From IMG/VR virus record IMGVR_UViG_3300017769_000001, positions 1 through 64,000 of that record: DNA of 64,000 nt; one strand, 5' to 3'. Origin of the DNA: a virus. Of this stretch, positions 23,705-34,167 are shown in pieces. The position numbers and the translations under genes were made by a program. The stretch's first letter is position 1. Every line of letters starts with the position of its first letter. Under the pieces are notes generated by a model, which worked only from the letters and a program-made list of their open reading frames with translations, had not been told where the DNA came from and made no database searches.

Positions 23705-23953
23705 ATGATAATGGCTATGCGATATTTGACGAACGTTATGGATCGGTATGGGAAACTACCGAAGACGCAGCGTGATTTGTTCTATGACAGAGCTAAAAAG
23801 CGGAAACGGTATACTCCATATTCATTATATTCTTCGTCTCCAAAAACAGTTCGTTTCCGAAAAGACTTCAACCGCTGTATGGACGACCCAACTGCATACA
23901 AAAAGCTCATGGTCAATATCAGACAAATCAAGAAAATGGACGATCTGTTGTGA
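23705..23953 (+). CDS. hypothetical protein (Leu-tag family)
   Basis: coupled ORF, ends KKMDDLL. Confidence 0.6.
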   Translation: MIMAMRYLTNVMDRYGKLPKTQRDLFYDRAKKRKRYTPYSLYSSSPKTVRFRKDFNRCMDDPTAYKKLMVNIRQIKKMDDLL

Positions 23954-24282
23954 AAACTTTTGACCTTCTGATGGAAGTTATCAAGTCCGGATCTCAACAT
24001 GAGACTACGGAAACTGGGTATGTATCAACCGGGTTTGTGAAATCAGGAGTCAATATCTTCATCGACGTTTATGATTTTGGAGAGCCGATTGTACGCATTC
24101 GCGATGAGAGGTTAAGGAATGGTAAACTATCCTTGGTTTATTCATTTTCTGTTCTTAACACCCAAAAAACTCGCGAACTCATACGTATGGGAGGCTCGAT
24201 CATGGGGGATATATCGCGTGAAGGTGATATTGAACGGTTGGTTGAATTTGTAAACCATCTTTACGACATGGATGCGTTGTAA
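23950..24282 (+). CDS. hypothetical protein (Leu-tag family)
   Basis: coupled ORF, ends LYDMDAL. Confidence 0.65.
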   Translation: MKTFDLLMEVIKSGSQHETTETGYVSTGFVKSGVNIFIDVYDFGEPIVRIRDERLRNGKLSLVYSFSVLNTQKTRELIRMGGSIMGDISREGDIERLVEFVNHLYDMDAL

Positions 24283-24611
24283 TGAGTATTTACGAAAAGC
24301 TGGTAGAAACTTTATACCTCGCTGACGATGTTAGAGTAGAAGACATACTGCAAGATCCATTGGTCGACGGTGAAGTTCTTGGAGTTTACGTAAAGTCTTC
24401 TATTCTGGAGAACCGAGTTTGCTCTGTTATTGTCTCCGTTATCGGAGAGTTTATGGTGGAATTCAAGTACAACCGAAGGGTAGAGTCTGTTGAAGAGTTC
24501 TACGAAAATTTCACGTGTGTGCCACAAATCACCAACGGAATTGAAGAAGAAGGAAAGACTTGCGAGCTGATCTCCATTGTGAGACAATTCAGGAAACTTT
24601 CGCCACTTTGA
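24282..24611 (+). CDS. hypothetical protein (Leu-tag family)
   Basis: coupled ORF, ends FRKLSPL. Confidence 0.65.
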   Translation: MSIYEKLVETLYLADDVRVEDILQDPLVDGEVLGVYVKSSILENRVCSVIVSVIGEFMVEFKYNRRVESVEEFYENFTCVPQITNGIEEEGKTCELISIVRQFRKLSPL

Positions 24612-24621
24612 GGTAAGAACC

Positions 24622-24813
24622 ATGCCATACATATCCGCATTTCTTTTTGCAGCTGCCTGTATCATCGGCAACAATTTCGCCGCTGGAGTTTTTGTTCTGC
24701 TGGGCACTCTTATTGCATTTTCTTGGATTGGTCGAATGTATCAAACAATCTGCAAAAACCAACAAACTTTATACGAACAGCAAAAAAAGATCATCAGGAA
24801 GATGGTAAGGTGA
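24622..24813 (+). CDS. small membrane protein
   Basis: GAGG RBS, two hydrophobic helices. Confidence 0.6.
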   Translation: MPYISAFLFAAACIIGNNFAAGVFVLLGTLIAFSWIGRMYQTICKNQQTLYEQQKKIIRKMVR

Positions 24814-24821
24814 GGGATGTG

Positions 24822-25079
24822 ATGACCCTACAGGAAGCAATGAACGCCGCTAGATCGGTGACAATATTCCGTAGGGGATGGGATGGTAAGGTTGAACTAT
24901 TGTCTGTCAAGAGATATTGCTTTATTGGTAGCGAGTTGAGCATATCTGTTCATATAAACGACAATACTGTCCTACTTTCAGCTATTGGCTTGGATGTCGA
25001 TATTGATCATGACTCCATTCGACAGATGTACTACGATGGAACCATAGACCAAATGTACCTTGCTCAGAAGAGGTTGTGA
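24822..25079 (+). CDS. hypothetical protein (Leu-tag family)
   Basis: likely start MTLQE; ends YLAQKRL. Confidence 0.6.
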   Translation: MTLQEAMNAARSVTIFRRGWDGKVELLSVKRYCFIGSELSISVHINDNTVLLSAIGLDVDIDHDSIRQMYYDGTIDQMYLAQKRL

Positions 25080-25348
25080 TGCTATCAACTTCATTACAAA
25101 CCATAGAAGAAGCAATCAACGCCAGCAGCGAGGTTCGAGTAGTAAGAGCCAGCGTTCCGTTTGACTATCAAATTTGGTGGACGAGAATCCCAAGCCGTAA
25201 CAGAAAATTACACTTCATTGGGATCAGCCACTATCGTATAACTTTTTACGACATACCAGATGAATGTACCATCAGAATCCCAAAACAACATGTTTTGGAC
25301 AACATTGAAATCATCGAAGAAATGCTTGAGGCCACTTCTTCACTATGA
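25076..25348 (+). CDS. hypothetical protein (Leu-tag family)
   Basis: ends LEATSSL. Confidence 0.62.
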   Translation: MMLSTSLQTIEEAINASSEVRVVRASVPFDYQIWWTRIPSRNRKLHFIGISHYRITFYDIPDECTIRIPKQHVLDNIEIIEEMLEATSSL

Positions 25349-25704
25349 GGGTATATACAGTGGACAATAAACAGAAAAGTGTGTTCGCGATCTTCCGGGA
25401 TATGGTTGTGGAAAGCGGCAATACAGTATCTTCGAACTTTGGGGGTGCGTTTCATAGCAACGAACCATTTTCTCTGGTAAGGAACGGCCATAACAACAGA
25501 AACGGGTTGCGTGTTCTCTCTGTCATAGTATCAGATCCAAAAACTGGAAGGAATCTGAAAGTAATAGTCCATGATGTGTACGCCAACGACGACGCGATGG
25601 TGTTCGCAAACATAGAGAGCCCTATCAGGGAAATCCGAAAAAACGGGGATCTGGAGGCGTTTTCTGAACTCTTTGATAGCCTGTACGGAATGGATCATTT
25701 ATGA
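25345..25704 (+). CDS. hypothetical protein (Leu-tag family)
   Basis: ends LYGMDHL. Confidence 0.65.
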   Translation: MRVYTVDNKQKSVFAIFRDMVVESGNTVSSNFGGAFHSNEPFSLVRNGHNNRNGLRVLSVIVSDPKTGRNLKVIVHDVYANDDAMVFANIESPIREIRKNGDLEAFSELFDSLYGMDHL

Positions 25705-32481: not shown

Positions 32482-32488
32482 GGCACTT

Positions 32489-32848
32489 GTGATGTGGAAC
32501 CCTATGATCGATGCGTTAGAAACCATCTATAACCGACCTATGCTCGCTGTGTGTGTAGAGATTTTAAAGTCTCGAACCCCGATATTGGACTCTAACAAAT
32601 ACATCCACATAAGTATAAACTCTCATGATCACAAAAAGTATGGCTATGTTTATGGGATTCAATTCGTAACAGTCAATGCTTTATTTTCTGGGGTTTATCA
32701 AGTAAAGTTTGTATTCTTGTTGGATAGTCTCCAAAGTCGAATAAATGAAGAAGGAATTGAGTGCGACACTATTGAAACTTTCCTTGAAGACTCGTACGAA
32801 CGAGACTATGATAAATTGTCAATGATGTTACAGGTGGATGAGTTATGA
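32489..32848 (+). CDS. hypothetical protein (Leu-tag family)
   Basis: ends MLQVDEL. Confidence 0.65.
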   Translation: MMWNPMIDALETIYNRPMLAVCVEILKSRTPILDSNKYIHISINSHDHKKYGYVYGIQFVTVNALFSGVYQVKFVFLLDSLQSRINEEGIECDTIETFLEDSYERDYDKLSMMLQVDEL

Positions 32849-33162
32849 CACCAATCGAAAAGCTTGTTAGTGAACACCAAATAGCGGACTTCGATATCGA
32901 CCCTATATGCAGTCATGAACTTCGGGTGGTGATATCAATGAATCCTACTTCATCGAAGTTCCAGTTTCTTTATACCAACATCATACAAATCAGCGGAGAC
33001 GGCTTGTATGTAATTTTTGGGCTGAGTTCTGATGAGATTCCGGTTTATTTCGACCATCCGTATCGAATGACGAAAAGAAACGCTCGCGATCTGAACCGGC
33101 AGATTAACAAAGTAGGAAAAGAAAAAATTCTCAATATCCTGCGAGCCAGACTCATTCTTTAG
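32845..33162 (+). CDS. hypothetical protein (Leu-tag family)
   Basis: ends LRARLIL; shares QISG.G.Y..F.L with the 32134 gene. Confidence 0.65.
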   Translation: MTPIEKLVSEHQIADFDIDPICSHELRVVISMNPTSSKFQFLYTNIIQISGDGLYVIFGLSSDEIPVYFDHPYRMTKRNARDLNRQINKVGKEKILNILRARLIL

Positions 33163-33191
33163 TTGACGGGGTCTTGTTGATGTGGTAGCAT
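33163..33191 (+). promoter_or_regulatory. sigma70-type promoter
   Basis: TTGACG-17-TAGCAT with extended -10 TG. Confidence 0.6.
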
Positions 33192-33215
33192 TCTGGTATT
33201 GTTTGAGGTAGTGAA

Positions 33216-33851
33216 ATGCATCCACTCGATTCCGTCGTTATTTTTAACGCTCCACCAATGTCAGGAAAGGACGTCGCAGCAGCCCACATTGATGAAACCA
33301 TCACAAAGGTAACGGACATCGTTACAGTCCCAATGATGTTCAAAGAGCACCTGTACAGGCTGGCGTCCGTTATCTATAATCTCGACTATTATGTCGTGGT
33401 TGATTACGCAACTGACAGAAGCAAGAAAGAAACCCCAACCGACCTGTTCGGTGGGTTATCCCCAAGGAATGCGATCATTGACATCTCCGAAAACGTGATC
33501 AAACCAAGATACGGTAAGCGGTATTTCGGCAATGTCTGTGCTTTAAACATGATGTCCGTGTCAAATATCATAACCCGACAGAAACTTTTCGTGTTCAGTG
33601 ACGGGGGTTTCCCAGACGAAGCAAAGCCGGTGATTGAAACGGTCGGTGCCGGGAAGACACTCGTCATTAGAATCCACCGAGAAGGTTATGAGTACGGTTC
33701 CGATTCAAGGCGTTATATGTCGGAAGACATGTTCGAGAAACCTCCAACCTTCATTGACATCTACAATGAAGAGGGTAAAATTGACGAGTTCTTCCAACAA
33801 TGCACCTCTAAAGTTCTGGAGTTCATTAATGAAAACGTCAAAGAGAGCTAA
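33216..33851 (+). CDS. deoxynucleoside monophosphate kinase
   Basis: NAPPMSGKD P-loop, KETP...G.SPR, SDGGF.DE, DSRRY. Confidence 0.8.
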   Translation: MHPLDSVVIFNAPPMSGKDVAAAHIDETITKVTDIVTVPMMFKEHLYRLASVIYNLDYYVVVDYATDRSKKETPTDLFGGLSPRNAIIDISENVIKPRYGKRYFGNVCALNMMSVSNIITRQKLFVFSDGGFPDEAKPVIETVGAGKTLVIRIHREGYEYGSDSRRYMSEDMFEKPPTFIDIYNEEGKIDEFFQQCTSKVLEFINENVKES

Positions 33852-33852
33852 A

Positions 33853-34167
33853 ATGACGTACGCGAATGCCGCCATCCATGTTTTGAAAAACATAGAAGAA
33901 GTCACCAAAGTCGGGATTCGTCAAGATTCGGATGATCTCATAAAAGGGCAGTTCCATCCGTGTATCGAAATCCATAAGATGTTCATGTTCTCCAAGTATG
34001 TGATCTACTACAAGGACTACGAGTACACAGTACGTTCAGACCCGGCTGCACTGGATGATGTTTACGATGATCGAAACATTGCAGAAAACATCGTGATATC
34101 TGGCATGATGAAACTTCATTCGAAAGGTCAACTGATCGAAATGCTTGACACAGTTGCTGCACTCTGA
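33853..34167 (+). CDS. hypothetical protein (Leu-tag family)
   Basis: start MTYAN; ends LDTVAAL. Confidence 0.65.
   Translation: MTYANAAIHVLKNIEEVTKVGIRQDSDDLIKGQFHPCIEIHKMFMFSKYVIYYKDYEYTVRSDPAALDDVYDDRNIAENIVISGMMKLHSKGQLIEMLDTVAAL

Follow-up and report, generated by a model that had tools for sequence, protein, structure and literature searches.

A helix closed by leucine recurs at the C-terminus of small, fast-evolving proteins in a clade of T4-like phages

A constant peptide on otherwise dissimilar proteins is known from several systems. The sliding-clamp ligands gp43, gp55 and gp33 of phage T4 share hydrophobic, acidic C-termini that are almost the same as the polymerase tail and can be exchanged for it (PMC2988020). 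In T-even phages, a constant short peptide, the capsid-targeting sequence (CTS), is carried by diverse, fast-evolving small proteins that are thought to counter host defences (PMC3012670), and encapsulins load unrelated cargo by a conserved C-terminal peptide that suffices for docking to a shell of the HK97 fold (PMC7355545). Here we analyse the first 64 kb (64,000 nucleotides; the window) of a 148,739-bp single-contig virus record (IMG/VR IMGVR_UViG_3300017769_000001; 45.5% G+C), in which about 29 small genes encode proteins that end in leucine (Leu-enders). A sequence-only reading of this stretch had proposed that these are unrelated proteins with a shared helical docking or degron tag that is read by one hub. 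No published description of the pattern was found in a literature search.

Our own codon-usage-trained gene call gave 211 genes genome-wide, and an independent annotation of the near-identical contig L003 in a database shows the same gene structure. Leucine closes 44 of the 211 proteins (20.9%, against a leucine content of 7.3%; binomial p = 2e-10), and all of the excess lies in small proteins, since 35 of the 108 proteins of up to 150 residues end in Leu compared with 9 of the 103 proteins of more than 150 residues, which is the background level. The genome-wide enrichment that a shared tag presupposes is therefore present, among small proteins only; the count of 15 Leu-enders in 19 consecutive genes at 23705–30025 was likewise reproduced, and every open reading frame named by the sequence-only reading exists and ends in Leu. 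Spurious open frames end in Leu in 11% of cases, and one caller applied across genomes found Leu-enders at 12 of 122 (10%) in Pseudomonas phage pf16, 11 of 83 (13%) in Alishewanella phage Slicko01 and 34 of 103 in this genome. Taking the phage and its close relatives together, about one third of small genes, and more than 80% of those in two fast-evolving arrays, have this ending. Counted by position, the small proteins carry Leu 35 times at the end and 5, 4 and 12 times at −1, −2 and −3, and the last Leu of the chain is the final residue in 35 proteins and lies one, two and three residues before it in two, two and three proteins, respectively. Other hydrophobic termini among small proteins amount to one Ile, one Met, two Phe and seven Val, and the Val cases have no helix ahead of them.

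The residues before the terminal Leu follow the pattern of an amphipathic helix of approximately 20 residues in a fixed register, with hydrophobic residues at 0, −3 (−3/−4), −6, −9/−10 and −16 and Glu at −8; the hydrophobic-x-x-hydrophobic-x-x-L pattern noticed earlier (register 0, −3, −6) thus reappears in the tail statistics. A leave-one-out tail matrix from which the terminal position was excluded separates Leu-enders from other small proteins (area under the curve (AUC) 0.77, p = 5e-6). Hydrophobic positions inside the helix swap L, I, M, V and F freely, whereas the terminal position is Leu only; at −1 and −2, polar or acidic residues prevail, chiefly S, D, E and K, and hydrophobic ones occur in about 17–25% of tails. 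Net charge and isoelectric point do not separate the Leu-enders from other proteins. Chance Leu-enders without the helix are NrdA, dCMP deaminase, the N-terminal part of PolB and a gp25-like baseplate protein. Several other readings of the tail were considered and rejected: a class II PDZ-ligand ending (hydrophobic-x-hydrophobic-COOH) is at odds with a hydrophobic −2 in only 17–24% of tails, the motifs for CaaX-type prenylation and KDEL-like endings do not fit, a membrane-targeting amphipathic helix is disfavoured by the acidic rather than basic tails, and the Gly-turn module described below has the wrong register for a DNA-binding helix-turn-helix and is acidic.

All six Leu codons, from both codon families, encode the terminal residue, and all three stops follow it. 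Codons are skewed to TTA, CTA and TTG and 24 of the 35 stops are TGA, because of ATGA and GTGA overlaps, which fix the third base only. The share of Leu-enders is 0.37 where the next gene overlaps, 0.40 where it lies within 15 nt, 0.42 at 16–60 nt and 0.36 where there is none; with the codon and stop usage, this agrees with the earlier claim that the ending is not an artefact of ATGA coupling. The 19 phage tRNAs include one ordinary tRNA-Leu. Codon and stop diversity, independence from the downstream gene and the single ordinary tRNA-Leu together argue that selection acts on the amino acid, and we conclude from these statistics that the terminal Leu is selected at the protein level. The sole phage tRNA-Leu (putative; 57447–57523, minus strand, anticodon UAG) measures 77 nt, which is short for a bacterial-type tRNA-Leu, as these normally have a long variable arm.

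Comparison within families revealed that the chain end moves and that Leu stays. In the HG-x-L family (33829 type), which is homologous over its whole length, the distance from a conserved Gly to the C-terminus is 11, 12 or 15 residues and all members end in Leu, and the homologues of the 23711 family in L003, L004, L033 (two) and L034 all end in Leu with the end shifted by one residue. Nine of the 11 multi-member families that contain a Leu-ender are purely Leu-ending, and 18 of 19 orthologue pairs between the window and L003 keep the Leu while −1 and −2 vary; the remaining pair has Ile in L003 (orthologue of the 29316 gene). Three orthologue groups end differently in different lineages: the small membrane protein (24622 type) has Leu in L033 and Arg in three others, and the 36043-type and 37608-type proteins, which close with Val and Asp in the window, respectively, both have Leu in L034. 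The last of these (37608–37772, minus strand; L034:9201–9362) has 53–54 residues and starts with an MRVEE-like N-terminal peptide. Moved chain ends that land on Leu and free variation at the other helix positions argue that the Leu ending is maintained in its own right, which, judged from these alignments, is hard to explain by one inherited alignment column or by ordinary core packing of a helix end.

Relatives were gathered with the vWA gene embedded in the arrays as anchor. Three loci share the gene order of the window (identities in brackets): L004 (vWA 71%), L033 (NrdB 82%, vWA 55%) and L034 (vWA 54%, gp32 69%), and 5 of 6, 9 of 9 and 10 of 11 of their small genes, respectively, end in Leu (pooled, 24 of 29 small and 1 of 17 large genes). 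A sister clade with another gene order around vWA (L006, L007, L032, L035 and L036; vWA 51–57%) has equally packed arrays without the bias, with 3 of 47 small and 2 of 36 large genes ending in Leu, and the IMG/VR loci L013–L025 are also at background. The arrays of L004, L033 and L034 are almost wholly replaced relative to the window, with the 23711 type, the small membrane protein and the 33829 type still recognisable, and a tail matrix derived from the window only also picks out the tails of the relatives (AUC 0.78, p = 9e-5). A tag would be expected to persist in orthologues, and Leu is indeed kept in those of L003 and across the clade (L004, L033, L034). Across the loci compared, the Leu-end trait thus appears as a clade-specific one.

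At L034:3660–4775, four tandem paralogues of 90–107 residues all end in WFKE(R/M)x(N/T)(M/L)x(V/I)x-L, and L033 has a single copy of this gene at the same site after vWA; the fourfold copies therefore indicate that the arrays grow by local duplication. Other peculiarities of the relatives concern the anchor gene itself. The vWA orthologue of a sister-clade phage on a 143-kb ENA contig (L007:10001–12058 and L008:1323–3380) translates to the protein recorded in the database only when TAG is read as Gln, and a neighbouring product also has in-frame TAGs, so this phage may be a stop-codon-recoded relative. In L004:2196–4257, vWA was called as two pieces of 66 and 604 residues that jointly match the window protein, which reflects a frameshift or an assembly error.

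In the window, the Leu-ender genes are packed tightly in operon-like arrays on the plus strand, in two sub-arrays separated by the vWA gene. Directly before the first array gene, a consensus scan places a sigma-70-like promoter (TTGACA-17-GACAAT) that overlaps a 9-bp stem-loop with a T-run (23642–23692, plus strand), and the same kind of scan showed no convincing terminator inside 23.7–30 kb. The first sub-array opens with a basic, all-helical protein of 80 residues (23711–23953; tail KKMDDLL; family motif KDFNRCxxDPTAYKKL), followed by Leu-enders of 110 residues (23950–24282; tail GDIERLVEFVNHLYDMDAL) and 109 residues (24282–24611; FRKLSPL). Behind the embedded membrane protein (24622–24813, 63 residues, ending in Arg), the array continues with 24822–25079 (85 residues; YLAQKRL), 25076–25348 (90; MLEATSSL), 25360–25704 (114; GDLEAFSELFDSLYGMDHL), 25701–26054 (117; IITESSL), 26068–26445 (125; LWETCDL), 26442–26783 (113; YFKIGVML), 26780–27121 (113; LRQLREL), 27078–27509 (143, start uncertain; AYDLASL) and 27506–27814 (102; YVELKLL). 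A family-like protein of 90 residues that ends in AEMGG and not in Leu (27811–28083) precedes the Leu-ender 28076–28402 (108; AIKCLSL), and an embedded conserved gene for a phosphatase or macro-like protein (28410–28904, 164 residues, phrog_335, non-Leu end) precedes 28912–29316 (98–146 residues, start uncertain; ILKIGEL) and 29316–29693 (125; LCKMGVL). An embedded small gene that ends in KRSTS (29693–30025, 110 residues, non-Leu) and the vWA gene itself (30025–32082, 685 residues, conserved far outside the trait-bearing clade) lead to the second sub-array, which consists of the Leu-enders 32134–32481 (115; LLSSNL), 32492–32848 (118; MLQVDEL), 32845–33162 (105; RARLIL) and, beyond an embedded deoxynucleoside monophosphate (dNMP) kinase with a non-Leu end (33216–33851, 211 residues), the HG-x-L protein 33829–34167 (112; LHSKGQLIEMLDTVAAL). 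Elsewhere in the window, Leu-enders are found on the plus strand at 70–603 (177; MRLEYLL) and on the minus strand at 47156–47518 (120; RHRLNTL), 47515–47889 (124; LRMEKEL), 49538–49987 (149; VLEMSGL), 50720–51319 (199; KLRLELL), 51321–51551 (76; MNELKDL), 62972–63232 (86; NEMIKDL), 63229–63597 (122; AYAEIAL) and 63585–63932 (115; YAMWVL). A possible Leu-ender at 2918–3202 (plus strand, 94 residues; VVRVRL) is a doubtful member, as it overlaps the start of the dCMP deaminase gene and its L009 counterpart ends in Trp.

The array proteins evolve rapidly. Core proteins are 98–99% identical to those of L003 and array proteins 65–97%, and the pooled ratio of nonsynonymous to synonymous substitution rates (dN/dS) against L003 is 0.36 for array genes and 0.06 for large or core genes; three genes are near 1, with values of 1.3 at 26780–27121 and 1.2 at 32492–32848. 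These rates mark the Leu-ender genes as real, constrained and fast-evolving, approximately six-fold faster than the core at the protein level. Outside homologues are scarce: 1 of the 35 small Leu-enders has a homologue in pf16, Slicko01 or the sister-clade loci, compared with 16 of the 73 other small proteins (p = 0.01), and this one is the gp25-like baseplate protein, which does not have the helix. Pfam and PHROGs scans of array members and other Leu-enders gave no family except for background cases, the 25360 protein matched only its own cluster in a collection of 5.8 billion proteins, and look-alikes of the 23950 protein in the ESM Atlas reached scores of at most 0.82 and provided no lead. 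Megablast of the array against a phage collection gave zero matches, and neither the 23711 family, searched against viral and metagenome contigs, nor the vWA protein alone retrieved related loci in those searches. When the 32134/32845 profile was run in an exhaustive HMMER search, no relatives among small proteins emerged, only weak repeat-type matches in long proteins; the core motif, I-x-ISG-D/N-G-x-Y-x-x-F, weakly matches several stretches of repeat proteins of 700–1400 residues and may be a blade- or hairpin-like repeat motif.

The claim that the Leu-enders are unrelated proteins with mostly dissimilar bodies survives in part. At the sequence level the bodies do differ: neither full-length leave-one-out hidden Markov models nor iterative profiles with reversed decoys brought the proteins together, each profile of the two best families (including A7, the 33829 type) retrieved only its own members, and the clade's 57 small Leu-enders form 43 sequence clusters. 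Against this stand tandem paralogues and a shared C-terminal module. Paralogue pairs are adjacent at 24822/25076 (Z = 5.2) and at 29020/29316 (E = 5e-5; the former lies within 28912–29316) and nearby at 32134/32845 (Z = 7.7). Over the last 42 residues, the proteins share an order-specific similarity beyond composition and terminal Leu (Fisher combined p ~4e-5, against two nulls that also end in Leu), and this module, of about 40 residues, includes a recurrent Gly turn ahead of the helix. Similarity over the N-terminal 30 residues is borderline (p = 0.05 and 0.009). Compared with other small proteins, the centre of the Leu-enders is more beta-prone (p = 3e-5) and the pre-terminal stretch more helical (p = 0.002), so that a beta-rich core also recurs. 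Structure predictions point to at least two different folds: the 23711 type is basic and all-helical (Atlas model with a predicted local distance difference test (pLDDT) score of 0.77) and stands beside members predicted as alpha/beta in low-confidence models, with no member in a known family. Modelling of the 25701–26054 protein with 32 sequences of the putative family in place of two left the confidence low, which also speaks against a single family. Much of the set probably belongs to a few gene families whose members come and go by duplication and loss.

The arrays lie in a replication and nucleotide-metabolism region with genes for a helicase, dCMP deaminase, thymidylate synthase, a ClpP-like peptidase, a split family-B polymerase, ligase, NrdA/B, glutaredoxin, the vWA protein, dNMP kinase, a clamp-like protein and a gp32-like single-stranded DNA-binding protein. 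The gene order of the clade is ribonucleotide reductase, glutaredoxin, array, vWA, array, dNMP kinase, small gene, clamp, gp32. Conserved genes identify a T4-like phage distantly akin to Pseudomonas phage pf16, Alishewanella phage Slicko01, Shewanella phage Thanatos and ViI-like phages, whose vWA orthologues are 37–48% identical to that of the window; the phage is uncultured, and its record, assembled from a viral metagenome, recurs in biofilm metagenomes, with no RNA data set among the sequencing runs listed as containing it. Two abutting genes encode the family-B DNA polymerase, 8400–10145 (exonuclease and polymerase N-terminal part) and 10145–11110 (C-terminal part, with the clamp-type tail SDMFGVGA), a split likewise present in the relatives L009, L010 and L012. 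NrdA of the window (20031–22274) is uninterrupted, and the large subunit of ribonucleotide reductase in L033 (L033:1557–3679) has an intein-type insertion (Pfam Intein_splicing match) and was called in pieces.

A Leu that is selected at the protein level, conserved across the clade and kept when the chain end shifts is what a signal read at the C-terminus would show. We would give an even chance to the interpretation that helix and Leu carboxylate form a clade-specific recognition signal on an accessory set that turns over by duplication and loss. The clade's accessory small proteins, of approximately 80–150 residues, follow a 'Leu-end rule': they close with an amphipathic helix of about 20 residues and a Leu that bears the free carboxylate. 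The array genes multiply by local tandem duplication and are almost completely replaced between relatives, and selection on the protein keeps the ending. Under the signal reading, helix and Leu-COOH would be the constant recognition element, and one common clade-specific partner, of phage or host, would read the ending and could dock, sort or remove early host-interaction proteins, a diversifying set in which the specificity would lie in the variable bodies.

Several observations weigh against such a signal. Amphipathic helices of 20 residues are commoner as packed structural elements than as free docking peptides. In the comparison of the window with L003, substitutions measured against dS reveal no stronger constraint on the tail than on the body (omega 0.45 and 0.35, respectively). 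A Pfam scan of ten clade-restricted larger proteins showed no PDZ, TPR or AAA+ domain and no unfoldase or adaptor, and so identified no partner. No protein of a known family that carries the tail was found in Pfam or PHROGs, so that a tag on unrelated proteins is not directly shown, and AlphaFold2 models of the 25701–26054 protein have low confidence (pLDDT 48.8 from an alignment of two sequences and 50.8 from one of 32 putative family members). Many members share the module of about 40 residues and the beta-rich core, so common descent with a structurally essential closing helix could account for much of the pattern.

That last point leads to the main rival, which we consider doubtful and in which the ending is purely structural: one or a few ancestors that ended in Leu would have diverged past recognition, Leu being the last core residue of the closing helix of these hyper-diverged families, with no common partner. 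Tandem paralogue pairs and the fourfold expansion in L034 are consistent with it, as are the similarity of the last 42 residues with its Gly turn, the significantly different beta-rich centre and pre-terminal helix, and the arrangement of helix, strands (four to five) and helix that low-confidence models of the 25701–26054 protein repeat. The divergence of array proteins (65–97% identity, against 98–99% in the core) is fast enough to erase family likeness within the age of the clade, no known family has gained the tail, and in packed, overlapping arrays a stop is hard to move, which could make an inherited end 'sticky'. However, the end point does move within true families, always onto Leu, and the terminal position, which accepts Leu only, is far stricter than the other core positions of the helix, although helix ends are normally its least constrained part. 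Moreover, the 23711 family is all-helical, the membrane protein acquires the Leu ending too, and leave-one-out and iterative profiles do not join the proteins, the A7 profile finding no other member in the window.

It is improbable that the Leu helix is a turnover signal which marks early proteins for timed destruction, for instance by the phage ClpP-like peptidase with a host unfoldase. In favour of it, the peptidase (6831–7790, 319 residues) retains the catalytic Ser and His, has a variable C-terminal extension of approximately 130 residues and is encoded in the early replication block, away from the head module. Its gene is absent from pf16, Slicko01 and the ViI-like phages, and syntenic orthologues (51–64% identical) occur in a few relatives of the lineage, on short contigs without arrays. 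The earlier nomination of this protein as the hub is nevertheless countered by L022, which has a homologue (33% identity) and no Leu-enders among 12 small genes. ClpP itself does not read substrates, and the ten clade-restricted larger proteins scanned include no unfoldase or adaptor. The degron version of the tag also fails on the tails themselves, which differ from ssrA-type degrons in their mostly polar or acidic −1 and −2; in ssrA-DD variants, acidic residues at these positions block ClpX-type recognition of C-terminal tags.

We give an equally slim chance to a packaging or docking address, either as a C-terminal counterpart of the T4 CTS or of encapsulin peptides or as a docking signal for the sliding clamp or vWA. 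Encapsulin cargo (PMC7355545) and T4 clamp ligands (PMC2988020) provide precedents for a shared C-terminal peptide, and the vWA and clamp genes lie inside or beside the arrays, the two proteins having been proposed as hubs on sequence grounds. Yet vWA is present in every examined relative without the trait, and the clamp also occurs in relatives that lack it. To our knowledge, clamps are universal in T4-type phages. The C-terminal part of the phage's polymerase ends in QQASDMFGVGA (TDVFGVGG in L009), and neither this motif nor its end residue is shared with the Leu tails. The arrays, moreover, are in early/replication-type operons and not among head genes. Nucleotide- or translation-level causes (start/stop overlap, a downstream ribosome-binding site or spacer, termination context or a special tRNA) are highly improbable and essentially excluded: the codon skew and the TGA excess fit ATGA/GTGA overlaps and the lower tail dS (0.084, against 0.179 in bodies, window–L003) is as expected where downstream initiation signals overlap, but an overlap fixes the third base only, the terminal Leu draws on both codon families and precedes each of the three stops, Ile and Val, each reachable by one mutation, are nearly absent as helix endings, the Leu share is unchanged without a downstream gene, large genes and spurious frames are at background, the only tRNA-Leu is an ordinary one, and the equally packed sister clade lacks the bias.

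About one in seven of the phage's genes obeys a single selection-enforced rule, and all of these are 'dark matter' that has no homologue in 1.8–5.8 billion proteins, so that the Leu-end rule provides a way into the function of ORFan early genes. Should the ending act as a recognition signal, its reader would reveal how the phage organises a large, fast-changing host-interaction arsenal, and the tail would be a portable tag for phage engineering that is anchored by one residue. If it is structural only, the set would represent a natural mini-protein fold that tolerates almost any sequence except at the last residue. More tentatively, large phages may run clade-specific 'C-terminal address codes', a generalisation that we consider possible and of which the helix-Leu-COOH ending would be a minimal form, with a putative reader that docks, sorts or times dozens of diversifying accessory proteins.

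A recognition signal of this kind can be set beside the systems named at the outset. As with the T4 clamp tails of gp43, gp55 and gp33 (PMC2988020), a C-terminal ending is common to a set of phage proteins, which in T4 are otherwise unrelated and address one hub; the clamp tails, however, are short, sit on flexible linkers and resemble the polymerase tail, whereas the Leu tails are predicted to be helical and differ from the polymerase tail of their own phage. The T-even CTS shares the combination of a constant address with a variable body on small phage proteins that vary between clades. It is N-terminal and is removed by the prohead protease, whereas the Leu element is C-terminal, consists of a long helix with the terminal Leu as its sole invariant, and belongs to genes in early/replication-type operons. 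Encapsulin cargo proteins likewise have a common C-terminal peptide, but that peptide follows a defined motif and the cargo genes lie beside that of the shell. The Leu tails have nothing fixed except register and terminal Leu, and their genes are not linked to one for a shell. The ssrA-type degrons read by ClpXP, ClpAP and Tsp also present a free C-terminus with a non-polar last residue. Their last two or three residues must be non-polar, acidic ones there blocking recognition, whereas the Leu tails have S, D, E or K at −1 and −2 and end in Leu rather than Ala. None of these systems matches in detail, and by analogy the CTS, the clamp tails and the encapsulin peptides appear to be the closest published counterparts in logic.

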